Shown here: one piece after another, positions 2,214 to 64,000 of the stretch | How the letters are laid out: the number at the start of each line of letters is the position of its first letter | Numbering within the stretch: the stretch's first letter is position 1 | NCBI GenBank assembly: GCA_905178155.1 | Contig: CAJINV010000015.1 | Span: 1,878,571 to 1,942,570 of the forward strand | Reading direction: 5' to 3' | DNA length: 64,000 nt | Source of the DNA: Amoebophrya sp. A120 | Taxonomy: Eukaryota > Protista > Dinoflagellata | The notes under the pieces: generated by a model | Told to the model about the DNA's origin: nothing | The model's input: only the letters and a program-made list of their open reading frames with translations | Databases searched by the model: none | Made by a program: the position numbers and the translations under genes

Positions 2214-5200
2214 ATGGCCGACCTCCCGCTCCGCATCGGCTATTCGCAGCCGCGAAACTTCGCGCAATGCCAGCCGGTGTTACCGAGCAACGACCCAAGC
2301 GCCAGTTTGTACGAGCAGTCGGTGGAGAATTTGGACGACTTCTATCCAGGAAAAAACACCCATCCCCATCCACTTTTTGCATGACAAATAGTGGATTTTA
2401 TGCATGTTTTGCATGACAAATTGGATGGGGGTGGGTGTTTTTTCCGGGATAACTTCCGCACCGGTTTAGGCTCCATGATGTTCGCGTCGACGACGATGAC
2501 GAAGTCGAATTTTCTATCAAAAGAAAAAAGTTCGTCACGATCACTCATGGGCATTTTTGCAATACAAAATTGTCTGTCATGCGTAAAAATGCATCACAGA
2601 CACAGCCACACTTCATAAGGGATTTCCCTAGTGTTTCTGCAATACAAGCAGAAGTTGTGATGCTAAAAAAATTTGTAATGCAAAGCCTGCAACTTAGTGA
2701 CTGTGACAAACTTTATTTTTCTCTCCATATTTTCTCGGCGCCGGTGCTGCTGGGAATAAAAAGTCGAACTACAAATCTTCCGGAGGAGGTGGACACAGCA
2801 CCTCATCCAGCACTACAGCGTCGAAATCTTTACTGCAGCGACCAGCGACAGTAGACCACCAGGTGACAAGTGCCAGCGCAGCAAACAATAAAATCGACCT
2901 GGAGAGCGAGATCTATTCGCAACTTTTCGCGGAAACCGCAAGTGCATTTAACTCATCAAGGTCGAATAAAATGAGCAACAAGACTCGAGGAGGCGCAACA
3001 AGTAGTGTGAGGACCGCGTCAGAAACAGCTGCGACTAAGCGACCATCCACTTCTGCCGCCGACGGGGCAACGGAAACCACAAAAGGGAAGAAAAAGGCCA
3101 CCATCAACGCCCCACTACCGGAGTCAACATCGTCCTTGACAAAGGATTTGAGTCCGAGTTTCAAAAACACCGAGCCGTTTCGCTGCGACGCGAGGATCAC
3201 CTCGAGATCTACCTTCGACGAGTACTATCCTGTGCAAAAGTATCGCGCTCGTAGTAAAATTGCAGTCCTGCATTACAAATTCTTTTCGTAAGGTAAATCT
3301 GCACGACAGATTTCACTTCTCATGCTGTCTGAGGAAATTTGTAATGCATTTATACGAATGCGATACTTTTGCAATGCATAAGTACATCAAACAATCCAAC
3401 GAGGCGAAAAGACTCGGGATCTCCCGGAAGGAGGTCGAAATCGAGCAGAAACTGCGGAAGAAACTGACTTACATCCAGAAACAGCAACGGTTTGATTCCT
3501 TAGTCAAGTCCGACGGGACCTTCAAAAGACAAGTTTGGGCGTCCATGATCAAGGAGGGGTTGATCGGGTACAATAAGACGAGTAAAAAGGCGCAGGCGGA
3601 AATGGGGGCCAGAGACGCTCTATGCATTGCAAAAGTATCGCACTCGTATGAATTGCAACTATGCATGACAAACTAGTATGTTAATACTTGAATCAGCATT
3701 ACAAATTCCAACTTGAACTTTCTTCTTGAGAAAATTTATCATGCAATTTAATCGTAGTGCGATACTTTTGCCATGCATACGCGCAGTCTTTCCTCCAATT
3801 ACTCGTCCGGCGATTCGGCACCATCATGCGTGCGTGGCGGAACGGGTTAGATTTGGACGGGAACGGGAGGATTAGTTACTACGAGTTCTGCAAAGCGGCG
3901 AGGGCGATCGGGTACGAGTCGAGTTTGCGGCAGCTGTGGAATGATTTGAATGACAACGATGATAAAGCGTTCATCACGCTAGACGAGCTAGACGTGGACA
4001 CCTTCAACCGCATCAACTACTTCAACGACATTCTGACGAGGAACTTCAGTTCTTTGAAAGAGGCCTGGCTCTTCTTCGACATTGACAAGCAGAACCAAAT
4101 TTACGAGAAACAGTTCCGAATTGCGCTGGTATCCACAGTATAATTCCCGTACACGTACAAGTGCTGTCTCTCTCTCTGCATGGCAAAACTCGGCGTCGAT
4201 CGTAGTTTAGCATGACAAGTCTCGTCGCACTCCCGATTGGGGAAATTTGTCATGCGTCTTGTACATCAGGTGCGGGAAATTTGTATTGCATAGCTGGTGG
4301 ACAAGTTGAATTTCGACACGGCGAAGTACGTATCAAATGCAAAAATGTCTGGGTCTGGCAGAATGCAGATTTTTGTCATGCTGTTTTTGCATGACACAAA
4401 ATGTCTGTCATGGAAGCCCTAGCATCACAGATTTCGAGAAGCCTCCGCGTTGCTTAATCCGCATGACAAACGTCGCCCCATTTCGGTGACAGGAAATGGG
4501 CGGCTTTTGCTGTCTATGCATGAGAGATTTGTCTGTGTTGTGTTATTCGCATCACAAGTTCGCACCCTTCCAGACCCAGACATATTTGCAATGCATAGTA
4601 CGATTTGAAGAAACTGTATGAAGATCTGGACTACGACGGCAACGGGTTTTTGACCTTGGATGATTGGCTGTTCCTGAAGAAATGGGTGACCAGCAACGAC
4701 TGCAAAATGCTGGAGGAGTTCAGGAAGGTATAGATTCTTGTGTGTTTTGCGCATAGCAAACCGCCTTTTCCATGCACGGTTTTGCATGACAAATTCAAAA
4801 AATCACACAACCCCAGGTCCTCCGCTCGAAATATTTCAAGCCGACCGACGCGTTCTACAAAGTTTTCGATGTCAACAGGAACGGCTCCATCGACCCATTG
4901 GAGTTCGTTGAGGGGTGCAATAAGTTGAAACTGGAGAAACACATCACCGAGATTGCCATCAATCCAAGACGCCTCTTCGAACTCCTAGACGCCGACGAGT
5001 CGGGGGAGATTTCCGTTTCGGAGTTTATCAAACTTTTCACGGCTACCGAATCCTCGGAGAACAAAGTAACCGCGGTGGACGAGCACAACCCTCTGCCCGC
5101 GATCCAGAAGGAGATCCAGTCGAAATTCGGGTGTATTGTGGATTTGGAGGAACTGCAACAACCATTGAAAAAATCCTACCAGTTGTACGACGCGGTATTC

Positions 5201-7567
5201 CGCCGGTTGGAGGAAACGGAAAGAACAGATTTGCACGAGCTCATCAACTACCAGTGGACGGGGCCGGACGAGAGTTTGATGAGCAGAAAATCGAGGTCGA
5301 ATAATTTGTTCGCAGCTGACGGAACAAATAAGCCGACAGGAGAAAACAAAGAGCATGTCAGGAAGATCTACTCGGCTGACTCGATCCAAGACATCGCGGA
5401 TTTGGATTTGTTACTGCAACAGGCGGAGCTGGCGCAGGCGTTTTTGAAACGGGCTTTGTTGAAGGAAGAAGTGCTGAAAGAGAATGGGATAATGACAACA
5501 GTTAGTACAACGAGTGGAGCTGCAAGTAGAAGCAGCACTAAAACCTCCTCCAGTCCGGCCGACGACCCGTCAAAAAATTTCGACGCGCAGGAGTTCAAGA
5601 AGAAAATCGACCAGATTTGGCCGTCAAAGACGACAACGAAGTCTTCTTCTCTGCTCAAGTATGCACTGCAAAAGTATCGTAAAAGGTACAAATACATATA
5701 CAAATTTCCTCAGCATGGGAGCTGCATTTTGTCATGCTGTTTTACCATAAAAACAAGAGTTGTCATGCATAGTTGCAATTAGTACGAGTGTGATACTTGT
5801 TTTGCAATGCATATCAAGCACCCTTTTCAAGAAGCGTTTGATCCGGCGATAAAGTCGAAGAAGCGGTGCATCGAGAAAGCGAATTACAAATACGAAGCGA
5901 CGTTATCCACAGTAAATTTCCCGTACTCGTACAAGTGTGGTTTCTGCATGACAAAACTTGCGTGGCTACCGTTTTAAGGTTTAGAGAACGACAGGGACGC
6001 CCAGCCCTTAGCTTCCCAACATGACAAAACTTGCACTCAATCCTAGTCCAGCATGACAAGTTGGGCTCTGCAAGGTAGCGAAATTTGTCATGCATTTTGC
6101 ACATGTACAGGAAATTTACATTGCATAGACGTATGGGAAAGCGAATAAGTTCAGGCGGATTCGGGACGTCGCGAGGATTTCCCTGCACTTCAACAAATGT
6201 AGGGAATTGTTGTCCGCGTTGAAGTATGAATTGCAAAAGTATCGTACTATTATAAATTGCATTACAAATCTCCTCAGCGTGAGAAATAAAATTTGTAATG
6301 CGGTTTTAGCTAAGGAAGGCGATTTGTCATGCATGTCTGCAATTAGAACGAGTGCGATGCTTTTGCAGTGCATATGAAGCAATTAGACGAGTTCTACAAC
6401 GTGATCTCCATCGACAACCGGATGAAGTATCCGACGGCGCTGGGGTGGAGAGACTTCGCCGCGTTAGTGATGATTGAATTGCCGAGTGAAAACCAGAAGA
6501 GCCCCGAGATGAAGAAACACGTCTGCGAGATACAGTACAACTAAAGGGATGTGTTGATGTTTGCTGATGTCGAACGCTTTTTGTGATGCAACTTTTTGAG
6601 AAGAAAATAAAAATCTTGCCGTATGTTCTTCAACTGGCTGCGCCAGAACCTGTGATGCAAAAAATCTTATGATCCAAAGAAACCGACTTATCAGGCTCCA
6701 ACTGACTCCCTTTAACGTCGCGCGGAAGCAGGCCCACCAATACTACCGCACTTTGCGCGAGAAAATCCCGTCATTAGTCCAGTCGAAACAGGCCGACGCT
6801 TTGCAGGAGGCGATTCTCGACAGTCTGCAAGCCGTGCGGAAATCGGAATTCTGTTCCCACGTGACCGTTATGAATTGCAAGAGCATCGTACTAGTAGTAA
6901 TTGCATTACAAATTACCTCAGCATGACAAATGGAATTTGTCACGCTGTTTTACCTTGGGATGTAGATTTGTAATGCACAATTGCAATTACTACGAGTACG
7001 ATACTTTTGCACTGGATGACCGTCGGCGTCGATATGGACCGTTCGAAAGTGTGGACCCAGCCCTGGTACCAAAACCCACTGGTGTTGGAGGGCAGGGTCG
7101 GATCACGACGGGAAAAGATGAAGAACCAGAAAGCGCTGCAAGACCCGGAAAAAAGCGCGAATAACTCTCCGTTACTCAAAAACCAGTTCCCGAAGAGCAG
7201 ACCGGAACTCCCGATCGTTTCCATGCGGACCGATTGGATGCGGGGAAACATGCACGGATCCTTTCCGCCGCCGGTACCAGATCTACGGGATAACCGGCCG
7301 TGGCTCCCGGCGGGCGGGTTGTTGAACGGGTTGTTTACCAATTTGACCGCAAATCACGAGATGGAGGACTATGTCACGGAGGGGGAACGGAACAAAATGG
7401 TGGAGAAATTGGGAAATTCACCGCCGGGGAATAAACTGTCTGGGGGGAAGAAGGGCGGAAATGAAGTCCCCGTTGGCGAGGCGAATTTTGATGAAAGGGT
7501 GAAAATGTTGGAAAAATCTCGGAAGAATCACGAGAAGAGAAAGCGGGAGTACTTGCAGAGTCGGTGA
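2214..7567 (+). CDS. Multi-exon protein: several EF-hands followed by RelA/SpoT-like nucleotidyltransferase domain
   Basis: Continuous frame after removing 9 TIR introners, 2 GT-AG introns (4728-4816, 6535-6694) and one non-canonical intron (~2547-2736). EF loops DLDGNGRISYYE, DYDGNGFLTLDD, DVNRNGSIDPLE, DADESGEISVSE. Synthetase-like motifs IKSKKRCIEK, RDVARISL, GWRD, HVCEIQL, HQYY. Confidence 0.85.
2343..2451. mobile_element. Introner family A
   Basis: 30-bp TIR TATCCAGGAAAAAACACCC…; DR ACTTC/ACTTC. Confidence 0.95.
3226..3380. mobile_element. Introner family B
   Basis: TAT-N5-GCAAAAGTATCG…CGATACTTTTGC-N5-ATA; DR AGTAC/AGTAC. Confidence 0.95.
3621..3779. mobile_element. Introner family B
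   Basis: Family B TIR; DR CGCTC/CGCGC. Confidence 0.9.
4130..4292. mobile_element. Introner family C
   Basis: TATCCACAGTA…GGGAAATTTGTATTGCATA; DR GCTGG/GCTGG. Confidence 0.95.
4331..4597. mobile_element. Introner family D
   Basis: TIR containing TGTCTGGGTCTGG…CCAGACCCAGACA; DR GTACG/GTACG. Confidence 0.95.
5660..5813. mobile_element. Introner family B
   Basis: Family B TIR; DR TCAAG/TCAAG. Confidence 0.95.
5904..6127. mobile_element. Introner family C (long variant)
   Basis: Family C ends; DR GACGT/GACGT. Confidence 0.95.
6225..6374. mobile_element. Introner family B
   Basis: Family B TIR; DR TGAAG/TGAAG. Confidence 0.95.
6869..7018. mobile_element. Introner family B
   Basis: Family B TIR (right end ATG instead of ATA); DR ACCGT/ACCGT. 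Confidence 0.9.
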
Positions 7568-8572
7568 AGATGGGGGTAAGAACATTGAGGAGGGGGATGG
7601 CGCCTATCATCTGGTGCTGTGGTGGAAGCACGTACTTCCTCTAACAGTATCCTCTCGGTCTCGTGCTACTTCTATCAAGAATCACTTCCCAGCAGCAGAA
7701 TGGCTGTAGACTTTCATGTACCTGCAGCTTGCTAAAAGACTTCCTTATTTTGATCTAGTACAGTACAACTTAGAGCGAAAGCGAATTGAAGTCATTGCCC
7801 GTGCTTAATATATCAAGATGTATGATGTTAATCAGTTTCAAGACGAAGACAGAAAACAAGATGTGGTCACGCTAGGACTCGTCAGGAAGAGCAGGAACAA
7901 ATTGGTTGGATTGCACTTGCTAATGTACTGCATTGCTTGTATAGAAGCTAGCGCCCGTATCAACAATTAAACACGAGCTATAATTCGGCAGGACAAGAGA
8001 CAGGATCAGATGGAGCGTTGGTCGTGGATGAAAGATGCTTTTGTAATGTCGTGTGATGGTCGTGCCCCCCGTGTAGCAACTACCTAGGTGAGGATGTGCG
8101 CGCTCAAGTTCAGGAAGATTCTTACGCGAGCAGCTGTCTTCTTCATCTTCAAAGATGAAAGCTACAAGTTCATCACATGGATCTGGATCATTTCCTCCGC
8201 GTTTTTGAAGCCCTTCATGTCGTTTGATGACCGCAGGAGTACTAAGAGTAGAGAGGCAGAGTATTAGACAGAGACCACACACAGTGTAGCTGATTCTGAT
8301 CTTCTGGTTCGACCCAGCCCACCACAGATCTGTGGCGAGGATCATTGTGACTTTAGATCATAGTCTTTTCAATTCTTTGGTCGTCTATCATTTTCCACTA
8401 GTATTGGTGTTTTCATCTTTTTGCTGGTCGGAGAAGGTAAAAGTAAATGTTGTTTGGTCGTGGATGAGGAGATTATGATTCAGTTTGTGTGGATGATGAT
8501 GTTAACCTACTACTTTTTCGTTTATCCCATTTCAACGCTCTGCATTAGCTGATGAAAACGAGAAGTTGATCG

Positions 8573-11500
8573 ATGGCGGGCAAAAAGTCCAGACACTCCT
8601 ACTCGGACTCCTCCGCGGGGGAATCGCGCAGGAGGACCGAACGCCGGCGAAAGCAGCATAACGCAATGCCTAAGCAACATGGGACAACGAGAAGTGACAA
8701 GGTCAAAGGCGAGCCTTCTGCTGGCGAAGATGTCCCCCGCCGCGAGAATAGTGCTCGTCCGTACAACGATGGCCTTAAACCGAGGCGGGAGCGAGATCTC
8801 GGCAATGACGATGGCGTGACGAAGGGGACGAGCTCGCCACGTGAGAAAAAGGAACAAAAGAAAAAAAAGTATAGTAAGTACCATAAAAGATTTTGATGTT
8901 GAGTTTTGCTCTCATCGGTGATGCGTGATGGTGATGGTGTGTGGTGAGTTGAATCAAATTTCTTAAAACTGAAAAACTACACACAGGAAAAATCGCCGCC
9001 ACAGTGGTCCAGATCAATCGCCCTCTTCGTCTCGCGCTTCAAGCTCGGCGCAAAAAAACGTCACTCGCTCGGAGCGCAGAACAAAGGAGAAAAAAGAAGA
9101 TGAGTTTGAGCGAAACTACAAGGTTCGACGTGGTGAGAGGAAGGGGCAATCGCAGGCTCCAACGCCGCGCACAAACCGGAAAAAAACTCCCCATCACAAG
9201 AGTGCCAACATCTCTGGTTCCGATGCTGCACTCGGAGATCGTGACAGGAGCCGGGGAATCGTACAACCAACTTCGGGATCTTCCTCTGCGGAATCGTACA
9301 ACCGTGTGGGCAAGAACACGGCTTTCATCCCGGATGGGTCTACTAGGGAGAAGGGGAAAAAGAACCACGTCTGGAAATTGACGCCAGAGGAACTGGAAAT
9401 ACAGCGGCAGGCCTTTGCAAAGCGGCCCGATCGCATGGTTGTTCCGCATTTGGCTGGTGCTGCTGCTGCTGCTGCTCCAAGAGCCCGCTGCTCATCTCAA
9501 TCGTCAAAGAAAGTGGAGCCACCAGATGTAGCTCCCGCAGCGGAGGAGGACGCAACTGCATCTCCGGGTGGAGCACCCACGGGCAGTCGCAGCACGAAAG
9601 ATGTAGACCCCGGAGGGAAAACTAAAAAGGAACGGAAGAAGGATGAAAAAAAGTCGAGAAGGCAAAAAGAAGAGCGGGTAGCTGGATCAAGCTCTAGGTC
9701 TAGGAGCCCCCGCGGCAGTCGAAACGGGTCCAATCCTCGACGTAACGCGAAACTTAAAGTTCCGAGCATAGCCTCCCGCAAAAGTCAAGCTGCTGACGCG
9801 ACTGGGCAAGAAGAACGTGACGACAGAGCAGCTAGTACTATGCGCCGAAGATCTCCTACTACAAATCGGCCTGCTGACAAGAAGAACGCTCCTGGAGTAG
9901 ATCCTGAGACCACTTTTGCTGGCGGCTTTCTTGGCAAATACGGTGAGGTGATTGGTTGCAGCTCCCTGACTACATCGTCGAGCGAAGAGGACGAACGTCG
10001 CAGGCGTGAAAAACGGCGGCGTGGCGAAGAACATGTTGACAAAGACGCCAAATTGGCAGGTTATCGCGAGCGCGATCACGAGATGAAATCCGGCTTTTCG
10101 AGAGAATCACGGCAAAGGCGATGTGATCGTTCTAGCACGGACGACGAGGTAATAAATGCAAGTACTCAATTGGTAGCAAGTCTTCGATGCAGTGAGGAGG
10201 AGCTGCTCGTTCCTTTCATCAGGCTATGGCTCGTATTAACTACGTATTGACCTTTGCATTTTCTAAATCGATTATTTTGCTTTTTATCCCTCTCTGGTGT
10301 GTCTTTGCTTCAGCAGTTCATCTTCGTGCTGACTTTTTATTGTCTTCAAATCTACACACAGTCACTCACCGTCAAGGATGAACTCCTCGTGGAACCTGCT
10401 GGTGCAAATGATCCTGCGCAAGAAAGCGCCGGCGTGGAGCAGCGAAACATTGCCGATACGCTTCAGAAGACCGCTACCGATCGTTCCAACGATGGAGGTC
10501 CGGTAGAAGACGGAAAATCCCAGTCAAAACTTGGTGGACCTCCGGGTGCCGTCGTGGCATCGTCTTCTACTGCACACCTCGAGCAGGAGACAAACCAGCT
10601 GGCAGAATCAGGAGATGAACAAGACGAGGCCGCAGATGAACCAGTCCGGCTCACCCTACCGGACAACGTTGCTAGCCAGCACGCCTGGTCTTTGGAAACT
10701 ACGAAAAATGCCCACTCGTTCCTGTTGCAAAACGAGGAGTGGCCAGACTTCCTGGAAAAACTCCACAGCGTGTCGTTCCCCCCAGTAGCTGCTACTCCGA
10801 CGACTGTTCAAGATCCGCACGAAAAAACACTGCTCGTTACCGACGATGCAGCCGAACAGGAACACGAGGATGAAGACGCTTCAAGGTCCTCGTCCGATAG
10901 TGCGTCGGTACTGTATCTGGCTCTGGCCCTCCAGAAACTTGCGGGACGGCTGGAGGCAGGCGTAGGCGTGACGCAATCTTCTTCGAAAAAGACCGGTCGC
11001 CGCTCTACCCCGGCACCCTCCAAGTTCATTCCGTTTCAACTGCGATCCATCATCACAGAAGCTGTGAAAAGACACGTTGTGCACCGTACCCCAATAGCGG
11101 TCGTTTCTCTCGCGGGAGAGGAATCAATATGCACTGCAAAAGTATCGTACTCGTAGTAATTGCCGGATGCATGACAAATCTCCTATCTTAGGTGAATCAG
11201 CATTGCAAGTTCTATTTTTCTTCTTGGAGAAATTTGTCATGCAATTCCCACTAGTTGTACGATACTTTTTCTTTTGCAATGCATAGTCCACAACTGAACC
11301 ACCGCTGACAACCTGGACAACCTGGAAAAAGCCGACTTTCTGCGAGTCGGTTCTACGACAGTGCACAACTCCCGCCCCTCCCCCTCATTTGTCATGCAAA
11401 ATACCGAGTCCACATCTTGCCTTGAAGGATTCGGCGCATGACAAGTTTTGGACGCCCAAACAGGACTACATTCCAGGTGCGGATTCATTGTCATGCAAAA

Positions 11501-14500
11501 GCTACACTTGTGGCATTGCTTCTGTTGCTGCTCATGCTATATAAATGAGGGGGAGGGCAAGTTGTGCACTCTCATAGATTCGTTCGGTGCTACACAAACA
11601 GCAGAAATTTATCGTTGAGCAGGAAAGCGAAACGTTTGGAAAGGAGCAGCACGCCCTGCTCGGCTGCGCCCACCACTGCAGCGAATCCGAATTGCAATTC
11701 TTTGCAGACGATTTGCCCGGGTTTGTGGTCTTCGTACTGACGTTGGCGAAAGTGGTCGAGGTGGAGCGGGTTTTGCTGCAGTTACGAAGGGAGGAAAGGG
11801 AGCTACTGGAGGAAGAGGAAGATGAATACGAGGAAGATCATGATCCGGAGATGGACGCTGCCAGCGGCCTTTTGGAAATCGCCGAGAAGGTGAGGAAAAA
11901 AATCCGCAGTGACAATTGGAAAAAGGGGCTGAAGACAAAACTGCTGGAGCGTCTGGAAACGATCTCGGCGAAAGATCTTTTGGTCGTTGGTGGAGGTTCA
12001 TCATCGTCGGCGTCAGTCAGCAAGAGATGCAATATCACTGTCAACTTATCGAAAAGCCCCTACATGTTGATCTTTCTCTCTCGTCTCGTCAAATCCACCC
12101 AGGGCTGCAACGTCGATCTGTTCGGTATGGCGTTCTCAAACGTTACATTCTCAGCTGTTACATGATCTGTCATGCAAGAACAGCAATAGTGAAAGAGGCA
12201 AGATTGCAGCTTTCGCATTACAGACTTTCCACAGATTATCATGCTGCTTAGCCCTTCGAAAATTTGTCACGCTAAGCACCTTGATCAAGTGGAGGCTGAT
12301 GGCAATCTTGCATGACAAATCCGTGTAACAGTTGAGAATGTAACAGTTGAGAGCGCCATACTCGGTTTGTTTTCAGAAATCGACCGGATTTGTGGAGAGA
12401 AACTCGATAAGGAATCCGACCGGGACATGGCAGAGTACGAACATGGAAAGGACCTGCAAATCCTCCTGGCTGTTTTGGCGGAGAAAAAAGCGGAGGCGGA
12501 GCGGAAGAAGCAGGAAGATGAGCTTCTTCGGTCTCTCCGGTCTGACGTGCAGCAGGCTGTGCAGCAAGCCGTCGCAGTGGATGGTCCGCGAAATAAACTT
12601 AAACTACACAGTCGCACTATGGATGAACGGGAAACGGGCGCGAGTGTTGTCGTGATCGGTGGCCGCGACCTGGCCATGGATGACAACTTCGGGGGACTGG
12701 GGGTGCGAGACAATCAAAGAAATTGCGCAACGCCACACAGCCACATGATGAACAATGACAGCCCCTATAGTTGTGCAGGTGTTCAAGATCATATGGTGTC
12801 TGGAAACTACGCTCGTCGCGCGGGTGCGCAAGTCCAGCTGGGAGACCAAAGCTTCGTCGTATTTTCGCCTCGCCCAACGTCTTCGCGAGACGTTTCCGTC
12901 GGGTCTACTTCGCGCCGCGATAGCCACCGAAACAAGCACATTGGCGCGAGGAGAGAGATTTTTGGCGGGCAGGAGGAAAGTGCAGGGCCAGATGATCTCC
13001 CTTCTAGTTCTAAGCATAACCTCCGGGTGGAACAGCAGCTACAGCTACTATCCCCGACAGCATCCGACTCCGACAGCAGTTTTTTACCGGTGTCGAAGGA
13101 GAAGGGGCGTTTAGGACGAGACAGAAAGACGGCACAACTCCGAGGACACGACTATCCACAGTAAATTTCCCGTACACGTACAAATGCAGTCTCTGCATGA
13201 CATAACTCGCCTTCAATCCTAGTCCAGCATGACAAGTTGGACTCTGCAAGGTAGCGAAATTTGTCATGCATTTTGTGCGTGTACAGGAAATTTACATTGC
13301 ATAACGACAATAACAATTCTTCTGGGCGAAGGTTACGCCAACATCGCGCAGAGCTGTACTCCAATCCCAGCGACGCTTGCTCGGACGGGGATGGTGGAGG
13401 TTTTTTCAACGACGCAAGTAGTCTTGACGAGGAGAAAGATCGTTCGCGTTCCCGAGATAACAGGATAAGAGCCGGACAAGTCAACAATAAAGGGTCGCTT
13501 TCTGGCACGAGGCGGAGAAGCGCAAGCTCGTTAGATGGTCGGAGCTCTTCGTCCTGCGAGGACCACGACAACAGACCAGCTTCGCCAGAGAGTAAATCTC
13601 GCGGAGTTTTTAGGTTTCTGCATCAGCACCTGCTCGACGAAATAAAAGACGAACAGAAAAAGAGAAGCTGTAGAAACAACAAGAAACGGACCAACGGCGC
13701 GGCTGCGGACGAGCAGGATGTGGATGCCAATTTAGCGCCGAAAAATAGAGATACACCTCTTCCGAGCACGCCTCCTAAGGACAAGAGTACTGCTCAACAA
13801 GATGAAGAGCAGCCAAGTACATCATCGCGATCGCCGGATATTAATCACGACAAAGCAGATGTCGTGTCTAGCTCGCCCAATAATTTGCAGAAGGTTCTTG
13901 ATCGGGCCCTTCTTTCGGCATCATCTCGTCTGGACGAGAGACGCGACGACGAGCAGCCCATCTCGGAGTCGGAGCTGAGGTTTGAAAATAAAAAGTCCAA
14001 GAAAAAAGAGGGTGAACAGTCGGTAGATCATACTCGGCACGAGGACACTGAGCGACGTATAATCCCCGCAGTGGACTACAAAAACCGAGTGGCGGGGTCG
14101 TGTGGAGACGTGTCAGAAGACAAAGAAGGCCAGAGCCAGAGCGGGTCCCGTAATATCGTGCATGCAGCTCTAGATAAGGATGACGCGGCTCGCATCACGG
14201 CAACAACTGCAGTTCCGTCACCGACACTGGACGAAAATAAGTTCCACGAGGCAGCGGACGATTTTATTTCAGCGAATGGGAATGCACTTCCACATGCGGC
14301 CTCCTGTGCTCGGCAGACCGAATATCAAGTCTCTGCAGAAGCACAAGGCGACGATGCGAAATCTTCGAATGGTGCATCGCCCCAAACTGCAAGAAGGGAG
14401 TGTAGCCGACCCGAGTCTCCTTTCGTGTGTAGTAAAACTCGTCGAAAAAAAGGAATTCCTTTTTGCCGATCGCCGCCCGGGCTGGGAAGTAGTAGTGCAC

Positions 14501-39561: not shown

Positions 39562-39880
39562 AGATAGTGATGCTCCTGGTGTTTGAATTTATCATGTACT
39601 TACACCAGAGCTTCCTGCTTTTTGGAGACAACTTCACTATGCATATTCGACGGCCTCCGGCTCCTGGTCAAGTTATTTCAAAGCTGCAAACAAGTCAACC
39701 GAATAAAATTAAAAACATAAACCACGAACGTCTCTACAGGATACAAAACCCGGCACCTGACGAAAAAGCAAAGTGATATGCTGGAGGATCAGTTGTTTCT
39801 ACTAGCGAGAAGTCAAGTATTCTGAAAAGCAAAAAAACAAGAAGCAACTACGTCGCATGCTGCAGCGATTATGACGCACC

Positions 39881-53196: not shown

Positions 53197-54645
53197 GATC
53201 GTGTTTTTGATTTTTTCTTCACTACCTCTGGGAAAAACCCAACAACATTCTAAATGCCTCGGAAAAGTTAAAGTTGAAGCTCTTGCTCTAGCTTCCCGCT
53301 TCTGAAATAAATGCACTGCCGGCGAGGTTTCCCAGTATGCTGCATTGATGTTGATCGTGAGCGCCATAAATTAATTAGCGAGTCAAAGAAATAGACGTCC
53401 TCCTGTGCCTTTCTTGGTATCTCTCAGCATTTTTTTTGCCATCCTCTCAGCATCTATATCCGACCATTGGTTTGCGTTTGAGTACTCATCATCTTCGTCA
53501 CCGAATGTCTACTGGATCAATCTCTAGAACAGATCTAGGCACTTCAGATTTGGGTCGCGACACTCTGACCGAATACTTCTAGAGCGGTTTTTATTTTCCG
53601 ATCCAAACTGGCCAAGCTCAACGCCTGGACGAGACCGTAGCCAGGTCGTGGTCGCTCCTACTACTGATCATCTTCCAGCAATAAGGAGCCTTCGCCCCAA
53701 CTCGATATCGCTCCAATAAAAACGACCTCGTGGCTCGTTCACGCTCAAAGGTAAGAACACATAGCAGGCCTTTATGAAGATGCTTTGTATCTTCACTTCA
53801 ATCATGAAGAGGAGGAGGAGGAGGACACCTCTATAGTCAGCTTCTAACTACTAAGCTACTCTCTTTTTTAAGCTAACCATAGGACATGTTTCTGAGGACG
53901 ACTAGCCGAGCTGGGGATAGGTTTTTATGGGTATGGGGTATGGGTATCTTTAAGAAATAGTCTTTTTTTATCATCCGCGCAGATGAATACTTACGCAACA
54001 AACCAAAACTTCTTTTCAGCGTGTCACATTTCCCGGTGATGTGGGGAAATCTCCAAAATGGACACGCATCATTTTTCTTGCGTTGTCAAAACAATCAAAC
54101 TGAATCTGAATACTAGCTGCTAGGAATCAACAGCTCACCTGCCAGAAGATTCAATTTGCTCACGTCTCCAAAAATAGTGATCTTTTTTGCACAAGATGCG
54201 CGAAGCTCTCTGAGCAGCAGAGCGAGAGCCCCGACAACCGGCGCGCTGTATCTTTTACCGATACTTACGTAAATAAACCGTAATTATACACGATTAGAAA
54301 AATAACCTAAATCATACAATTTAGAAAGCTCTACAAGTACTCCATACACGGGGACGGGTAAGTTGTGGAAGATCATTATACAAGAATTGCTCCTCCCCTT
54401 GTTCAGTCGAACCAAGACGAACGCAGAAAACCTAGCTCCATAATCAAAACATTTCTTCTTGTTTATCAGTCTTCACCTTTGCCTTTCTTGAAACATCACT
54501 CAATGAATACAATACCTAGGAAAAATCCAACTTTGTGTGTTAGTGTTAGTGTTAGAACATGTACATGGCACAGCCCGTAGCTGTCCGCTCAAATAAATCT
54601 TATCCCTGCTCAAATGTAGTTTAACAAATGACAAGATTTCAATGT

Positions 54646-57170
54646 CTACGGTGGAGAAGTGGTGATGTGATCGTACAGCTTTCTGGCCAAAACCTCACTC
54701 CCGCGCGAATTCGGATGCAAATTGTCGTGCTGGTTGTACAGGTCGGGCGTCTCGTCTCCGCGCAGCACGTCATTGGTAGTCAGTGTCGTGACGCTATGCA
54801 TTGCAAAAGTATCGCTATCGTGCTAGCAGTCGTGGCTGTTGCATAATTTTCGCCAAATTTATTTCTCCAGTTCCTGAAGGGCTACCAGTTTGTACGTGCG
54901 GAAGTACTTACCGATGAAAAAGGACAAGGAGTAGGGCTGTCATGCAACGTTGATGCAATAATTAGTACGAGCCCGATAGAATTACTTTTACTTTTGCAGA
55001 GGATAGATGCGGATCCCTTGCAATTCGGGGTTTCCATTCTGAATTTCGTTCAGTGTATCGGTCAACACCGGAAAACCTTCGCGGAGCAAGCTGAGATAGA
55101 ATTGGTTTACAATGTAGGTCCCGGTCGAGGCCAGAAACGTGCTCCCGTATAAAGTTGAAAAGTGCTCCCACCACAGAGTGTGGAAGTGTTATTCTTGTTT
55201 GCTCCGCAAATTATGCAAACATAACTGCCAAAGCCAACACAAACATCTCCCACATTCTTGCACGCACCAGAGAGTGCGGACCAATTTGCAAGCCGAAGTA
55301 GCGCTGAAAGTCTGTGATCTGTGCTGCATAGCGCCACAGCGTCAACGATGTCTGTCATGTTGAAGTTGAGTCTGCATAAATGGCTTAGATAGTGATAAGT
55401 ACTTACCAATAAATGCGTCGCATTCATCACTTTACGGAATACAGAAAGAAGTTTCCGTGTCAAAAAATTGCAACGCGAGCTACTGCTATTTGGTCTTCTC
55501 GTGGTCGTGGTGGGGGGGCACTTTTCATTCTAATATCCCGACCGCGTTGGCGATGTGGCCTCGAAAGTAGCCTGCGCGCGTCCTAGGAAGCGAGAGGACG
55601 ATGATGTCCTTCGGTTTTTTCTTCTCGGTCAAAAACTTCAGATACCTCGGAAAATTTTCCCGCCACAGAGTCCGGTATGCGTCGATGAATTCTCGCTTTA
55701 AAGATCCACCCAAAAGTCCGCTGATGATCGCTTGCCGGCTTTTCCCCAGGAGAACTTGCTGCAAGATACTTTGGTGTAAGTCATTGCCCGAGACGTGCAC
55801 CACAATGCGGTCGTGCTCCGTCACGGTGTCCCGAATCGCGACGTCGTTTGCGGGGTTGTTTGGACCGCCTGGGACGGAGCGGTCTCTCAGCGTAGAGCCC
55901 GCTTGCGCAGCCATCACGCATTGGGTGGAGCTGGAGTCTCCAGCCGTGCTGTCGTGGAACAGTTTCGACAGGTAATACATGATGTCCGGCTTCAGGTACG
56001 GCATAAACTTGTCGTATGTATTCGGTAGCTTGTTCTGCATTTTGTCGTTTGCAGTATCCACAAACGGCGAGACATCCATCCAAGAGTCGCCCGCAAGGTA
56101 CACGATGCGAGCCGTATTTGATGGCGCGTTTGCATTCAATATACCGCGGAGGTTCGCGACGATCTGCCTTATCAAGTGCAAAAGTGTCTGGGTCTGGAAG
56201 ATTCTGAGACTTGTCATGCAAGTTTTGCATGGCCGTCCATGATGTCGGTCGTGATTTTTGCCCTAGCATCAGAGATTTTTGGAGGGCTTCTGGATCATGC
56301 CTATTCCGCGCGACAAATGCCCTCTACTTCCCGTAGCAAAAATTGCATTCCCTTTGCTGCTCATGCAATACAGATTTTCATTTTTTTGAAAACCAAATGC
56401 AGCTGCAGCATCACAAGTTGCATTCTTCCAGAGGACCCAGACACTTTTACATTTGATATGCCTTACGGTTTGCCCATTCGTGCGCTCGTGCGCGTAGTAC
56501 TGGGCGGCGTCGATATGTGTGGGGGTGAAAGCGCCATTGCCCCCGCCGTTGCCTTTGCCATTAGATATGGATGTGTCAGAGTTGAAATCGACAAAGTTGA
56601 AATAACTTGTAATGCATAAGATGGATACCAGTTGGAGGCCCAACTTCGAAGCGGCGCACGACAAATTTCAGTAGAGCCGAAATCCAGTTTGTAATACTGT
56701 TCCGGTAAGCGTAAGGAAGACGCCTCTTGTCATGCTACTTTAGCAGCTCTATTTCTAACTACCCCGAAACAGGCTTACAGTCTGGTCCTTTTGCCTACTC
56801 TGCAAGACAGGCACTTTCTGCGTTGTATTTTATGCATGATATCATCAAACTATAATTTCAACTTTGACGATTTCAATCCTGACAGTTCCATAGTAGACCG
56901 CGCATGATTAACCGCGACAATGACTCCCGCCGTCGCACCCGCCACAGCGCCGAGGGACAGAAACGCGATGAGCACAATGGCCCAGATCGGGAGACAGGGG
57001 GAACTGCGACCAGAGGATTCGTTAAATTGTTCGGATTGTGGCACGCGGGTGTCATCAACTTCAGCTCCTCCTGCATGGTAAGTTTTCGACTTTTCTTCAT
57101 CCCGTCCCAGTAAGAGAGGATCTTCCTCTGCATACGACCGAGGCACTGCTGGAATTGTGTTTCCGGTCAT
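54646..57170 (-). CDS. SGNH/GDSL-type hydrolase, type II membrane-anchored, paralog 2
   Basis: Intact frame after removing 4 introners; blocks GDS, AGST, SGND, DNLHP. Confidence 0.85.
54795..55005. mobile_element. Introner family B (shared)
   Basis: DR GACGC/GATGC. Confidence 0.85.
55148..55535. mobile_element. Introner family K (shared)
   Basis: DR TCCCG/TCCCG. Confidence 0.9.
56170..56458. mobile_element. Introner family D, paralog-2 specific
   Basis: DR TGCCT/TGCCT; single TGCCT at empty sites ~52679 and ~60988. Confidence 0.95.
56566..56892. mobile_element. Introner family J, paralog-2 specific
   Basis: ~38-bp TIR TATGGA…GTTGAAATCGACAAAGTTGAAAT; DR TTAGA/GTAGA. Confidence 0.9.
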
Positions 57171-59312
57171 CGTGTTTTTGTTTTTGATTTTGATTTTGTC
57201 TTCACTTCCTCGCCGGGTCAAAAGTGAATAGCGTGTGCGCTCCTTCAGGTGAACGGGAAAAATGATAAGAGAAATACAATATATAATAAGCCTAGAGAAG
57301 TAAACTATAACCTAGGCACTTAGCTGAACGAGTACAATTCTTCTTTTGAAGTTTTTGCTTCGGGAAAGCAGGAGTTGGAGTTCTAGCTTCGTTCCTGCTA
57401 GTATAAAAATGCACGCAAGATGAAGTGGTCAAAACTATAAATAGAGGCTCTTTGCTATTCTACGATACTAGCTGCTGCTGTACAAGAAACTACTACTTAG
57501 GCTGATGTTCTACCGTGGTCAAAAGAGGCGGACGCGGACTGTGCCACTGCTATTCACATTTTTCTTGTACACGATCAAATGTCCTCCGGCTCGCTTTTGG
57601 GCAAGCATACACTTCTACATTGGGTTCTTTCAACGTTTTGATGCGACTTCTTCGTAATGAAAAATTCTCGAAAGAAATGATCTTGCTCAGAAACAGAGCT
57701 GATGTGCGCTCCTTCTAACTTTGTTGCAAGGTGAACTAGAGCGCACCAATGATCCAGTGAACTTCTACGTCAAGCCTTTCAAGATCATGAAGAACGTTTG
57801 CAGATGAGCTTCGTCTTGGTTCTTTATTTGGATCTGCGAGACAGAGCGATGATGAAGCGGATCTGTTCTGGATCTTCACAGGCGAGTATGACTGCCGTCA
57901 GTTCTGTTTTTGACAGATTTGAATACAGGGACAGCCACAGTCGTAGTGTGATGAGTTGTAGTTGATCTTCCTTCAGTAGTTCATGTGATCATGCCAAGGA
58001 CAGCACGCGGAATGGAAGAGCGCGTCTGTCCTCGCTGTTTCTGAAAACAAATACCACGCCGTCCTCCACACAGCCGCAGGGCACAGGACAATGTCAGACA
58101 GAGGGTCCTCGTCAACCATTTTTTGTCTTTTTCATGCGTTTCCCCTCCTCTTAGTATCTAACTATATCTTCCGGCCATTGGTTTGAGTAATATTCATCAC
58201 CGAATGTCTACTGGATCAATCTCTAGAGCAGATCTAGGCACTTCAGATTTGGGTCGCGACACTCTGGCCGAATACTTCCAGAGCGGTTCTTTTTTCCCGA
58301 TCCAAAATGGGCGAGCTCGACGCCTGGAGACCGTAGCCAGGTCGTGGTCGCTGCTACTACTGGTCATCTTCCTGCAATAAGGAGCCTTCGTATCGCTCCA
58401 AAAAAAACAATCTCGCGGCTCGCTCACGCTCAAAAGTATAGAACACATAACAGGCCTTTATGAAGATGCTTTCTATCATCTAAAGAAATAGCTCTTTTCT
58501 TCACCCGCGCAAATGAATACGCAACAAACCAAAACTTCTTTTTAGCGTGTCACATTTCCCGGTGATGTGGGGAAATCTCCAAAATGGACACGCATCATGT
58601 TTCTTGCGCTGTCAAAACAGTCAAACTGAATCTGAACCCTAAGTAGCTGCTAGGAATCAACAGCCCTGCCAGAAGATTCAATTTGCTCAAGTCTCCAAAA
58701 ATAGTGATCTTTTTTGCACAAGATGCGCGAAGCTCTCCGAGGACCAGAGCGAGAGCCCCGACAACCGGCGCGTTGTATCTTTTACCGATACTTACGTAAA
58801 TAAACCGTAATGATACACGATTAGAAAAACCTAAATCATACAATTATAACCGCTCTACAATTATACACGGGAGGTAAGTAGAAGATCATCATACAATAAT
58901 TGCTCCTCTTCGCCATCGGTTTCCTCGCCCGCCAGCGGCGTAAGTAAATTTTTAAGCTCGTCCTTCAGCGCCGCGCTTATCGCGTTGTCCTCCGAATCGG
59001 GTCGGCGGTTTTGCGTGTACCGCTCGACCTTCTTCCGCCACTTTCTCCCGTCCTGGGTGGTGTAGAGCGTGGCGTCGGTCGCATCTTCCGACCGAAACAA
59101 GACGAAAGCAGAAGACCTAGCTCCATACAACATTTCTTCTTGTTTATCCGTCTTCACCTTTCTTGAAACATCACTCAATACCTCGGAAAAATCCAACTTT
59201 GTGTTTTAGTGTTAGTGCTGTTAGTGTTAGAACATGGCACAGCCCGTAGCTGTTCTCTCAAAATCTTTATTCCTCCTCAAATGTAGTGTAACAAATGATA
59301 AGATTTCAATTT

Positions 59313-61862
59313 CTACGGTGTAGAAGTGATTATGTGATCGTACAGCTTTCTGGCCAAAACCTCACTCCCGCGCCAATTCGGATGCAAATTGTCGTGCTGG
59401 TTATAGAGGTCGGGCGTCTCGTCTCCGCGGAGCACGTCATTGGTAGTCAATGTCGTGACGTTATGCATTTTTGCAAAAGTATCGCTATCGTGCTCGAAGT
59501 CGTGGTAATTGCATACATAATTTTCGCCAAATTTATTTCTCCAGTTCTTGAAGGGCTGAATTTGTACGTGCGGAACTACCGATGAAAAAGAACAAGGAGT
59601 AGAGTTGTCATGCAAGGTTGATGCAACAATGAGTACGAGCCCGATAATGCAACTTTTGCAGAGGATAGATGCGGATCCCTTGCAACTCGGGGTTTCCATT
59701 CTGAATTTCGCGCAGTGTATCCCTCATCACCGGAAAACCTTCGCGGAGCAAGCTGAGATAGAAAGCGTTCACACGCGACGTCCCGAACGTGGTCAGACGC
59801 CCGTTCCCGCCGTATCAAATTGAAAAGTGCTCCCACCACAGAGTGTGAAAGTGTTATTCTTGTTTGCTCCGCAAATCCAAATTATGCAACAATAACTGCA
59901 TCAAAACAAACATCTCCCACATTCTTGCACGCACAAGAGAGTGCGGAGCAATTTGAAATCTGAAGTAGCGATGAAAGTCTGTCTGTGCTGGACAGCGCCA
60001 CAGGCACACCATAAACGCTGTCGGTCATGTTGAGTCAGCATAAATGGCCTAGATAGAAGTGATACTTACCAATAAATGCGTCGCATTCACTTTACGGAAT
60101 ACGGAAAGAAGTTTCCGTGTCAAAAAATAGCAACGCAAGGGCAAGCTGTTTGGTCGTCTCGTGGTCGTTACGGGAGGGTGCGCTTTTCATTCTCATATCC
60201 CGACCAGGTTGGCGACGTGGCCTCGAAAGTAGCCTGCGCGCGTCCTAGGAAGGGACAGGACGATGATCTCCCGCGGTTTTTTCCTCTCGGTCAAAAATAT
60301 GCATTGCAAAAGTATCGTACTAGTATAAATCGCAATACAAATTGCCTCAGCATTAGAAATGGAATTTGTGATGCTGTTTTACATTAGGAAGAAGATTTGT
60401 CATGCATATTTGCAATTACTACGAGTTCGAGTGCGATACTTTTGCACAGGATAAAAAACTTCAGATACCTCGGGAAATTTTCCCGCCACAGAGTCCGGTA
60501 TGCATTGATGATTTGTCGCTTCAAAGATCCACTGCCCCATTCTCCGGCGATCTGCGACCAACTTTTACCCTGGAGAACTTGCTGCAAGATACTTTGGTGT
60601 AAGTCATTGCCCGAGACATGCACCACGATGCGGTCGTGCTCCGTCAGGGTGTCCCGTATCGCGACGTCGTTTGCGGGGTTGTTTGGACCGCCTGGGACGG
60701 AGCGGTCTCTCAGCGTTGAGCCCGCTTGCGCGGCCATGACACATTGGGTGGAGCTGGCATCTCCAGCCGTGCTGTCGTGGAAGAGTTTCGACAGGTAATA
60801 CATGATGTCCGGCTTCAGGTACGGCATAAACTTGTCGTACGTATTCGGGAGCTTGTTCTGCATTTTGTCGTTTGCAGTATCCACAAATGGCGAGACATCC
60901 ATCCAAGAGTCGCCCGCAAGGTACACGATGCGAGCCGTATTTGATGGCGCGTTTGCATTCAAAATACCGCGAAGGTTTGCGACGATCTGCCTTACGGTTT
61001 GCCCATTCGTGCGCTCGGGCTCGTAGTACCGGTCGGCGTTGATCTGTGTGGGGGTGAAAGCGCCATCGCCCCCGTTGCCTCCATTGTTGTCTCCGCTGGT
61101 GCCTCCGCCATTGCCTCCGCCATTGCCTCCGCCATTGCCTCCGCCATTGCCTCCGCCATTGCCTCCGCCATTGCCTCCGCCATTGCCTCCGCCGGTGCCT
61201 CCGCCGGTGCCTCCGCCATTGCCTCCGCCGGTGCCTCCGCCATTGCCTCCACCATTGCCTCCGCCACTACCTCCGCCGGTGCCTCCACCATTGCCTCCGC
61301 CGGTGCCTCCGCCATTGCCTCCGCCGGTGCCTCCACCATTGCCTCCGCCGGTGCCTCCGCCGGTGCCTCCGCCGGTGCCTCCGCCGGTGCCTCCGCCGGT
61401 GCCTCCGCCGGTGCCTCCGCCGGTGCCTCCGCCGGTGCCTCCGCCGGTGCCTCCGCCGGTGCCTCCGCCGGTGCCTCCGCCGGTGCCTCCGCCGGTGCCT
61501 CCGCCGGTGCCAACGCCGGTGCCAACGCCGGTGCCTCCCCCCCCGTCATTGCCTCCTCCGGCAGATGGAGGCGGAGCGGGGACGTTGTTCCCTTCTGTAC
61601 CACTCCGCGCGTGGTTAACCGCGACAATCACTCCCGCCGTCGTACCCGCCACAGCGCCGAGGGAGAGAAACGCGATCAGCAGTATGGCCCAGAGTGGGAG
61701 ACAGGGGGAACTGCGAGCGGAGGGGTTCAGTTGTTCGGTCTCAGCAGCTTCACCAGGTCCTCCTGCATGGTAAGTTTTCGACTTTTCTTCATCCCGTCCC
61801 CGTAAGAGAGGATCTTCCTCTGCATACGACCGAGGCACTGCTGGAAGTGTTTTTCCGGTCAT
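59313..61862 (-). CDS. SGNH/GDSL-type hydrolase, type II membrane-anchored, paralog 3 with long Gly-rich stalk
   Basis: Intact frame after removing 3 introners; blocks GDS, AGST, SGND, DNLHP; ends …HIITSTP*. Confidence 0.85.
59462..59667. mobile_element. Introner family B (shared)
   Basis: DR GACGT/GATGC. Confidence 0.85.
59813..60197. mobile_element. Introner family K (shared)
   Basis: DR CGCCG/TCCCG. Confidence 0.85.
60298..60453. mobile_element. Introner family B, paralog-3 specific
   Basis: DR AAAAA/AAAAA; single AAAAA at empty sites ~50448 and ~55631. Confidence 0.95.
61098..61540 (-). repeat. Coding 12-bp tandem repeat (GGGT/GGGN)
   Basis: More than 30 units of GCCTCCGCC(GGT/ATT) on +. 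Confidence 0.95.
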
Positions 61863-63269
61863 CGTGTTTTTGGTTTTGTCTTCACTTCCTCGGAGAGTAA
61901 AAAGTGAATTGCGCCGTGTGTTCTTCTTAAGGTGAGCGGGAAGAATGATCTTTAGCGGAACGAGTACAATTCTTCTTTTGAAGTTTTTGCTTCGGGAAAG
62001 TAAAAGTTGGAGTTCTAGCTTCGTTCCTGCTAGTATAATGCACACAAGTAGTTGTGGGCAAAAATATAAATAATGCTAGAGGTTCTTTGCTATTCTACGA
62101 TACTAGCTGTTGCTGTACAAGAAAGTACTACTTAGCTTGCTTTTCTACCGCGGTCAAAAGAGGCGGACGCGGACTGTGTCCCTGATATTCACATTTTTTT
62201 TGTAGAAAGTCAAATGTCCCCCGGCTCGGCTCCGGCTCGCTTTTGCGCAAGCATAATCTTCTTGGTCGTTGGGCTCTTGCGACGTTTTGATGTGGCTTCA
62301 TCTTCCCATGAAAAATTCTCGATAAAGATGATCCCGCTCAGAAACAGAGATCCTATGCGGTTTATTTTACAACTTCGTTGCAAGAACGAACTAGAGCGCA
62401 ATGATCCAGTGAACTAGATCAAGAAGAACCTTTTCAGAAACTCGTCTTGGCTCTTTTGGATCAAGATTTACCTGCGAGACTGAGTGATAAAACGGATCTG
62501 TTCTGGAACTTCACAGGCGAGTATGACTGCTGTCAGTTTTGTCTTGATGGATTTGAATACAGGCACAGCCACAGTCACCGTCTGATGAGTTGATCTTTCA
62601 GTAGTTCATGTGTTGCAGATGCCAAGGATGCGCGGAACGAATGTAAGAGCGCGTCTGTCGTTGAGCCGTGGCTATTTTTACGACAACAATTACTACAGCC
62701 TGAGATCATCACTCTCGATCTTTCAGCTGCTCATGTGACGCTGATAACGTCGCGCGGACGGCAAGAGCGTGTTTGTCGTTGTTTCTGAAAACAAATACCA
62801 CGTGGCCCCCCACGCATCACGAGCCTTCGCAGCAGGAGAACACTTTCAACAGACAGAAGGTCGCCAAGGGTAGTTTCTCGGTCTTTCTCTTATTTCTTTT
62901 GATGTCCATGAAAGAATTTTTCGAGCATGCTGTAGATGTTGTCCATTTCGGTAAGAATAAGTAGACGTACTTAATATTATTTAAGTAAATGCGGAAAATA
63001 AGATTCGCGATCGCGTGCGTGAATGAAGTTTCAAAAAAAAAGTACAAATACTGAATTCTTGTTGACCTCCAAAAGCGTCGTGCTCATGTCTTTTATTCCC
63101 TTCGTTCAGCATAGTGCTGTCTTTTGGTTAAGAAGTTGCACCCCTTTAGAAGTACCCAAGTGTTGGTCTCTTTCCATATATGAAACAAAAAAGTAAAAAC
63201 CAATATCAAAAGTAGATATTGCATCTTCATCATGATGCCCGCCCTGTGGGACGACTTTTAATCCTCCCG

Positions 63270-63551: not shown

Positions 63552-64000
63552 TATGCATTGCAAATATGTCTGGGTCTGGAAACTTGTGATGCACGTTAGT
63601 CATATAGCAAATGCACAGCACTGTAATGCGCGGCCAAGCATGACAACGTTTTTTTGTGCTTCTGTGCTACGTATTCCGCATGAGAAACTGCGTTTTTGCA
63701 TGACAGGGAAGAGGAGCGCTTCGCGGCCACGCAATACAGAGCCAGGAGTCATGGTGCCAGAACAGCATGTATCCTGTGCAAAAGTATCGCACTCGTATTG
63801 CAATCGTCGTTCGTTCGTTGTGGATCGGCTCTGCCGACCGGGTAACCCAACGCCTTACATATAAATGACCGACTTAGGCGAACCCCGTTGCGGGCATACA
63901 AATTGGCCGTACGGAAGGGCCCTAAGCGCTACATACATAGTTCACCCTAAGCGCCTACCACTTCGGTCTGGGACCTCGTCTACCTGATCCTGGGGGTCCA
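63552..64000. mobile_element. Family D introner with nested family B introner (63770) and a third insertion (~63807), truncated by window end
   Basis: 63552-63769 is a reverse-complement relative of 37341-37596; family B TIR starts 63770 and breaks into CGTTCGTTCGTT plus unrelated sequence. Confidence 0.85.

Follow-up and report, generated by a model that had tools for sequence, protein, structure and literature searches.

The DNA examined here is a 64,000-nucleotide stretch of the genome of the marine parasite Amoebophrya sp. A120 (the window), whose genes are interrupted by many short elements that begin with TAT, end with ATA, and carry terminal inverted repeats (TIRs) between 5-bp direct repeats. 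By scanning for TAT…ATA ends combined with inverted and direct repeats, and then applying profile and gapped searches, we catalogued 44 complete elements that occupy 10.4 kb of the 64 kb. A first-pass annotation of this DNA had arrived at the same count. The elements are 109–397 nucleotides (nt) long, except for one of 1,086 nt that contains a nested insert. Besides these 44, there are at least five decayed elements with little duplication (starting at 16377, 16580, 18053, 40717, and 45601), and two further elements near 63552/63770 are truncated by the window edge. All 44 lie inside gene spans totaling 42.6 kb, a result that is partly circular because the spans were drawn partly from restored reading frames. 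The elements up to position 40935 are assigned to the plus strand and those from 44806 onward to the minus strand.

The direct repeat is perfect over 5 bp for 27 of the 44 elements. Mean repeat identity is 0.90 at this length and 0.22–0.34 at 2–4 and 6–8 bp, so the 5-bp repeats claimed earlier are borne out and no other length from 2 to 8 gives a signal. A fixed detector finds 45 TIR pairs in the window, 22 with a perfect repeat; applied to 30 dinucleotide shuffles, the same detector returns a mean of 1.9 TIR pairs and none with a repeat. BLAST clustering at 30% mutual cover yields 15 clusters (nine multi-member and six singletons), near the “about 12” families proposed in the first-pass annotation, and stricter cover yields 18–20. 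Adenine occupies TIR bases 11–13 in 35–40 of the 44 elements at each end. The C or G previously given as the fourth base is not constant: the family represented at 49950 has TATT or TATA. Matches over 70% of element length are present in related loci for 34 of the 44, and a search of Rfam gave no matches.

Most of these elements cannot be given conventional splice ends. For 36 of the 44, no sliding of the junction produces GT-AG, GC-AG, GA-AG, or AT-AC ends; the other eight can slide, including the CAACA-flanked element of family G at 22568–22728, which reaches AT-AC although the first-pass annotation had counted CAACA among the repeats that cannot. Were the elements retained, 42 of the 44 would shift the frame or introduce stop codons in every frame. 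Removal of each element plus 5 nt, in turn, produces long reading frames. Host gene 1 (2234–7567, plus strand) becomes a 1,102-amino-acid EF-hand protein once 10 elements and two GT-AG introns are taken out, whereas its unspliced frame meets a stop at codon 56. The claim that removal restores sensible protein therefore holds for the EF-hands, which Pfam recognizes. The hydrophobic helix spanning the element at 33157 is judged by eye, and the SGNH assignment stands only as a lead: no Pfam match was obtained, and GDSL-like Atlas clusters are found at 0.87–0.88.

Three tandem paralogues on the minus strand reveal how the repeats arose. The element at 56170–56458 (family C) and the element at 60298–60453 (family A) are each absent from both other paralogues, giving two empty sites apiece, and each empty site holds one copy of the repeat. 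This identifies the repeat as a target-site duplication and shows that the elements inserted with a 5-bp duplication. TIRs, short length, and a target duplication with empty sites are the features of miniature inverted-repeat transposable elements (MITEs). Older elements are common to all three genes, namely family A copies at 49628–49804, 54795–55005, and 59462–59667 and family I copies at 49950–50346, 55148–55535, and 59813–60197. A singleton with a repeat mismatch at base 5 lies at 56566–56892.

Two NCBI proteins named Amoebophrya sp. A120 (P0001 and P0002) map exon by exon onto the window, with exons that cover 14641–18773 and span the elements at 11128 and 11354. This match identifies the elements as the introners that Farhat et al. 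described in 2021 (PMC7789003), the source to which they had been linked in the first-pass annotation; TIR form, repeats, and removal all agree. That report describes A120 inverted repeats as TAT, seven looser bases, and AAA, with direct repeats of 3–5 nt at the borders (a 5-bp example is given in Fig. S19), removal supported by RNA-seq, and 1,954 families that together comprise 29,850 repeated introns. It also lists 83 of 89 spliceosomal proteins and the small nuclear RNAs (snRNAs) U2, U4, U5, and U6 for A120, with U1 snRNA undetected and the minor snRNAs reported absent. No splicing signature was seen by those authors, and the border position was left unknown (PMC7789003). The organism, the TAT start, the seven looser bases and AAA, the non-GT-AG removal, and the organization into families are shared between their introners and the elements of the window.

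A later survey, Gozashti et al. 2025 (PMC12130899, Dataset S2), lists 58 A120 introner families; most of the entries examined are given as “TIR DNA, superfamily unknown,” about 100–400 nt long and with mixed splice ends. Its automated duplication lengths range from 2 to 6 nt and its splice-site models vary, whereas the duplication is 5 bp throughout the present sample. Elements, repeats, and removal are likewise in print elsewhere (PMC11453091). The elements, their repeats, and their removal from transcripts are therefore already known. In contrast to the present analysis, the sections and supplement text of Farhat et al. that we consulted contain no fixed cut register, polarized bases, or internal motif, and the literature that we searched reports neither a branch site nor a cut register for introns of Amoebophrya. 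GT-AG ends are lacking from two thirds of the introns in A120, and how these are removed has been a question since 2021.

Cut position and loss from transcripts

We define the register as the number of upstream repeat bases that are kept. A perfect repeat lets the cut slide over six positions, so the register can be read only where decayed repeats fix the cut. For annotated junctions, we listed all cuts compatible with the annotated residues; transcript alignments underlie the A120 annotation. All of the junction evidence comes from plus-strand genes within positions 1–19500.

Transcript evidence is provided by contig 11 of sequencing run X6, a run whose RNA status is a guess and for which one junction is displayed directly. 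Its pieces align to host gene 1 with no mismatch, and position 3619 is joined directly to 3784, so that the family A element at 3621–3779 (repeat mismatch at base 4) is skipped together with 5 nt. Two gaps between pieces measure 161 and 504 letters, and exactly these values are obtained on removing two GT-AG introns (4728–4816 and 6535–6694) and six more elements with 5 nt each. The six are located at 4130–4292 (family B), 4331–4597 (family C), 5660–5813 (family A), 5904–6127 (family B), 6225–6374 (family A), and 6869–7018 (family A, 3′ end ATG). This contig thus lacks seven elements, each with 5 nt, in agreement with the proposal that they behave as introns whose removal takes out the element and 5 nt. 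Elements with perfect repeats also occur in this gene at 2343–2451 (family E), 2515–2729 (singleton), and 3226–3380 (family A).

X6 behaves as spliced RNA because GT-AG introns are lost from it and depth is zero in seven of 30 bins. Contigs of the DNA run X1 span whole elements, including that at 4130, at a depth of 39–43 compared to 42–47 for their flanks, with no other letters, and no skip of element plus 5 nt occurs among the 15 X1 joints shown (672 joints and 20,288 pieces lie beyond those). Elements plus 5 nt are therefore lost from a transcript-like contig and retained in DNA. Three of the elements removed in X6 have a G directly after ATA and nonetheless lose 5 nt, which means that a ready-made TAG goes unused. 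Raw RNA runs do not cover these genes: X10 yields 0 reads and X9 yields 76, all on one TIR.

The contig junction allows registers 4–5. Among annotated junctions, the allowed registers are -1 to 5 for the element at 11128–11285 (family A, repeat mismatches at bases 1 and 4, annotated skip of element plus 5), 2–5 for 11354–11576 (family D, 5′ end TAC), 4–7 for the decayed element at 16377–16548 (3′ end ATT), 2–4 for 17253–17432, 4 alone for the decayed element at 18053–18367 (ends TT-TC), and 3–5 for 18446–18618 (repeat mismatch at base 3). The single register common to the contig junction and six of the seven annotated junctions is 4, which places the cuts 1 nt before TAT and 4 nt after ATA. 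This conclusion is well supported, on few junctions. At 11354 a slide to GT-AG is possible and is not taken by the annotated protein, and the direct repeats at 17253, 18053, and 16377 match at only 1, 1, and 2 of 5 bases, which indicates that microhomology does not set the cut. In agreement, the three paralogues preserve the upstream repeat copy, whereas its downstream counterpart has diverged at bases 1 and 3; in the related locus L103 the downstream copy has diverged at base 3.

Published splice ends can be compared with this register. In Table S4 of Farhat et al. (PMC7789003), all nine predominant non-canonical A120 pairs have T as the second base, and all nine A25 pairs start with TT. Four of the nine A120 pairs (GT-AC, GT-AA, AT-AC, and GT-CG) are within the eight commonest pairs predicted by register 4. 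The rule should permit gene finders to place tens of thousands of A120 introns exactly.

Polarity of end variants

A larger sample was assembled by scanning with the commonest TIR, which returned at least 162 stretches; among the matches listed, nearly all belong to one assembly series. Three viral-contig and two metagenome matches (L015, L032) were omitted as single chance hits. Two of the loci correspond to the window by orthology (column identity about 85%) and have four insertions in common with it. These are the elements at 38881–39018 (family A) and 39099–39258 (family B), shared with L103, where the downstream repeat of the latter is changed at base 3, and those at 40170–40323 (family A) and 40373–40623 (5′ end TAC), shared with L104, where the former has a 5′ TAC end. 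A repeat-blind detector found 323 short TIR pairs, of which 217 have a direct repeat that is perfect at 5 bp, one at 4, and none at 6.

A search that placed no requirement on the end triplets then gave 309 elements, of which 257 could be oriented (29 in the window by known strand and 228 in other loci by a codon model) and 52 were dropped. The orientation method was correct for 27 of the 29 window elements. Changes at TIR bases 1–3 number 0, 0, and 5 for the 5′ triplet and 9, 4, and 1 for the 3′ triplet, where the last is a 71-nt mis-pairing. The two ends thus vary differently according to the direction of transcription (Fisher p 0.0005), and a looser detector gives the same pattern with some false pairs. 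The 18 end variants fall under 12 TIR labels.

Once the mis-pairing is removed (n = 256), T at +2, A at +3, and A at -7 show no variation under register 4, whereas +1 and the last four bases are free. Sixty different end pairs occur, G is present at +1 in 73 of 256, and the last two bases are AG in 24 compared to 26.5 expected. Neither a +1 G nor a terminal AG shows residual selection among these 256 elements, demonstrating that terminal dinucleotides are not under selection. The ends are not those of U2-type GT/GC-AG introns, as GT-AG appears in 8 of 256 at register 4. A constrained +2 U and a 3′-end adenosine, as in U2-type introns, are nevertheless present, with the 52 elements of unsure orientation excluded. 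The earlier assertion that splice dinucleotides are not read is consistent with these data and with the unused GT-AG slide at 11354.

How the elements may be removed

The first-pass annotation proposed that the removal machinery reads a fixed geometry consisting of the TIR stem plus an offset. The offset is upheld; recognition of a stem and offset alone is not supported, because the end variants are polarized and because the terminal pairing predicted at 17253 and 18446 is about 0. If pairing were what is recognized, an A-to-G change at -7 (a wobble pair) should be tolerated and U-to-C/G/A changes at +4 should not, whereas 0 and 5 are seen, respectively. Given this opposition and the register kept at 17253 and 18446 without terminal pairing, single bases appear to be read, namely +2 U, +3 A, and -7 A.

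We consider it somewhat probable that a relaxed major spliceosome, using a candidate branch adenosine at -7, removes the elements, rather than a pure stem cutter. The 5′ end, N|UAU(C/G), would be read like GUAUGU, with U at +2 and A at +3 conserved and the first base free. The candidate branch adenosine would be the A that opens the terminal AUA, at -7, and a run of U at -15 to -18 would act as the pyrimidine tract. The 3′ cut might then be set by distance, 6 nt past the candidate branch A and with no AG, and the hairpin may join both ends in place of U1. Like +2 U, +3 A, and the single adenosine, the usual U at +4 and the U-run match bases that the spliceosome reads. Short fixed spacing between branch and acceptor exists in some protists. 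U at +4 is favored by an unmethylated U6 box (PMC13326754), and, according to a review, the spliceosome of Fritillaria removes transposon-derived introns that have odd ends (PMC11282704).

Two extensions of this reading are offered tentatively. It is plausible, if doubtful, that the spliceosome here works without U1, +1 G, or a 3′ AG, and instead uses a donor N|UA, a branch A 7 nt from the end, and a counted acceptor. Perhaps, too, a transposon with exactly these signals in its symmetric ends and a duplication as long as the 1+4 offset could insert anywhere in any exon, in either orientation, and leave no trace in the protein; we hold this idea with similar reserve. A transposase needs symmetric ends. 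Because both TIR ends carry both signals, a clean intron would result at any target and in either orientation. The fixed register and the three constrained bases make exact predictions that RNA reads can examine, in particular a lariat junction that links the base preceding TAT to the A with which the terminal ATA begins. If the spliceosomal reading holds, it would bear on the limits of relaxed core splicing chemistry and on the fit between transposons and host splicing.

Several observations weigh against a spliceosomal mechanism or narrow its base. Spliceosomal chemistry does not usually leave the +1 base and the last base unconstrained, and the -7 context is unlike the branch consensus that pairs with U2. 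The branch site, the lariat, and the snRNA pairing are proposals, and the spliceosomal step is built on 18 variants. The seventh annotated junction, at the decayed element 16580–16880, skips element plus 2 rather than plus 5; its 5′ cut fits register 4 and AT-AG ends are possible, and this cut would leave the candidate branch A only 4 nt away. A paralogue empty site for the element at 56566 fits register 5 (Thr) and not 4 (Asn), within a variable linker. Eight of the 52 dropped elements carry variants, and majority orientation would set five of the eight against the polarity pattern. L104 is shown by orthology to be mis-oriented, and flipping L001, a near-tied locus, brings both of its dropped elements into agreement. 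L073 is likewise near-tied, whereas L010:3401 is possibly a true exception; the worst case, worked by hand, gives p ~0.01 for polarity. Finally, the RNA evidence is one contig from one run of guessed RNA status, with one junction displayed.

The main rival is a non-spliceosomal nuclease and ligase guided by structure, which would recognize the hairpin, cut at a fixed offset as proposed for euglenids, and release circles or linear RNA. We regard it as unlikely on balance. In its favor, folding is better than in shuffles for 37 of 43 elements (z below -2), end dinucleotides are free, U1 snRNA is undetected (PMC7789003), and euglenid introns with TIRs leave as full-length circles (PMC11282704). 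Against it stand the polarity and pairing results described above, and pairing is predicted for TIR base 4 in only 19 of the 44 elements and for base 7 in only 18. A protein could, however, read bases asymmetrically, and it is this form of the nuclease that competes most seriously, as may hold for euglenid introns (PMC11282704). A spliceosome that uses a branch farther upstream, with the -7 A kept for some other purpose such as positioning of the 3′ end by a protein, would share the same 5′ polarity and would be at ease with a -7 context that is no textbook branch site and with the ATA-G end of the exception at 16580. It is improbable, given that no other strand-biased motif is found: an internal motif shared by the elements occurs 257 times in sense and 286 times in antisense in 215 elements, has no sense-strand copy in 57 of 256 elements, and is found 30–200 nt away from the cut.

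Excision of DNA in some life stage, like that of ciliate internal eliminated sequences, would explain the transposon anatomy and the single repeat copy left by removal, and it is very unlikely. The elements are found at single-copy depth in DNA run X1, the 15 joints shown include no such skip, the four shared insertions persist in a related assembly, the signals are polarized by transcription direction, and the register holds where the repeat is gone. Hairpins with direct repeats are a recognized setting for reverse-transcriptase template switching, and one could suppose that the junctions are such artifacts while the genes are dead or retain their elements. This is scarcely credible for elements whose repeats match at only 1, 1, and 2 of 5 bases (17253, 18053, and 16377), whose retention would disrupt nearly every frame, and around whose shared insertions the exons are conserved. 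One annotated junction may be of this kind: public protein P0001 skips 54 nt of open frame at 15175–15231 between 7-nt direct repeats, without TAT…ATA ends, and is possibly a template-switching artifact among the published non-canonical introns. Part of the elements start with NTATCC, which resembles the U12 donor. A U12-type reading was not favored, as the minor snRNAs are reported absent (PMC7789003).

The elements can be placed among known systems. Euglenid nonconventional introns share the TIR hairpin that joins the ends, duplication-like repeats, non-canonical borders, and a MITE-like origin, and differ by their end motif, a purine/pyrimidine border rule, and excision as circles (PMC11282704). 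Fritillaria borealis introns are likewise MITE-derived, with odd ends, and are removed by the U2 spliceosome, although preferred pairs (AG-AC and AG-AT) and U1 exist there, whereas no pair is preferred here (PMC11282704). Micromonas and Aureococcus introners are also non-autonomous TIR elements whose removal restores the exon by way of the duplication (PMC11282704). In contrast to the window, where 36 of 44 elements cannot become canonical, they bring or co-opt canonical sites.

Internal motif, mobilizing enzyme, and other features of the locus

The elements share an internal motif, GCAT(G/T/C)ACA, with 125 copies in the window, 108 of them inside the 43 elements then catalogued. In the larger sample it is present in 248 of 256 elements, with A as the middle base in 7 of 642 copies. 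It decays in old copies and has no strand bias. Successive copies are 31–33 bp apart in 18 of 45 gaps compared to 1.8 expected, with the caveat that copies within a family are not independent, and this spacing is seen in at least six families. A period of about 31 bp, three helical turns, suggests a DNA-binding protein common to all families. The motif was considered as a branch point and rejected, having no strand bias and no fixed distance to the 3′ cut and being missing from 57 of 256 sense strands. It is likely to be the DNA-binding site of the mobilizing enzyme and not a splice signal. The GT-AG introns at 4728–4816 and 6535–6694 (in the latter on the antisense strand) and a candidate GT-AG intron at 47275–47400 also carry the motif, which suggests that some canonical introns are decayed introners.

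A 5-bp duplication fits an integrase-like enzyme. No mobilizing enzyme was found in the flanking loci, where none of 85 long frames matches a transposase family, and a perfect repeat accompanies just one of the long TIR pairings listed, which measures 504 nt. A published lead for the mobilizing enzyme is A120 family 38, which combines TIRs with long terminal repeat (LTR)-integrase-like frames (PMC12130899).

The remaining plus-strand elements belong to family F (12126–12360 and 29231–29466), family B (13153–13303), family E (22342–22450, in the orientation opposite to that at 2343), family D (23827–24049 and 30483–30706, the latter with a repeat mismatch at base 5), family G (28059–28256), family C (33157–33412, within a hydrophobic helix, and 37341–37596), and family H (37663–38000), with a singleton at 38115–38327. 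A decayed element at 40717–40935 has a repeat matching at 1 of 5 bases, and the frame is kept after removal of element plus 5. On the minus strand are elements of family A with a 3′ ATG end (44806–44961), family C with a 3′ ACA end (45010–45288), family H (45782–46060), and family C (47537–47810), as well as a candidate decayed element (45601–45749). The family A element at 46118–47203 holds a nested insert of about 0.9 kb; this insert (46150–47070) has 62% GC and 13-bp tandem repeats. Two nested element ends at 63552–64000 have partners beyond the window, and the end at 63770 is followed by a nested start similar in appearance to that of the element at 46118.

Among the host genes, the C-terminus of gene 1 beyond the EF-hands (5900–6900) contains blocks that, by eye, presumably resemble RelA/SpoT-like nucleotidyltransferases; one small exon of this region was scanned and has no Pfam match. 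The apparent single long gene at about 8.6–18.8 kb is divided into several models in the public annotation (14641–18773 and 10440–11670). Protein searches with the exons at 55537 and 11584 found no match among longer proteins. The three tandem paralogues (49480–61870) encode a membrane helix and a putative GDSL/SGNH-like domain, with a long Gly/Thr/Asn repeat in the third, and their nearest Atlas clusters are bacterial hypothetical proteins at 0.90–0.91. The first paralogue is disrupted by a 1.66-kb insertion (50880–52578) that is flanked by a 38-nt direct duplication and lacks TAT…ATA ends.

Plus-strand genes give way to minus-strand genes at a stretch of 32% GC with no long frame (41200–42700), after which duplicated blocks of 104 and 124 nt are found (42674–43352). 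An intergenic GC-rich stretch at 25140–26140 contains poly-C/G tracts. Two candidate GT-AG introns would terminate, at 8976–8986 and 10351–10361, in one and the same 10-base motif; an A is located eight bases before its end, and the motif is possibly a fused branch-acceptor signal.

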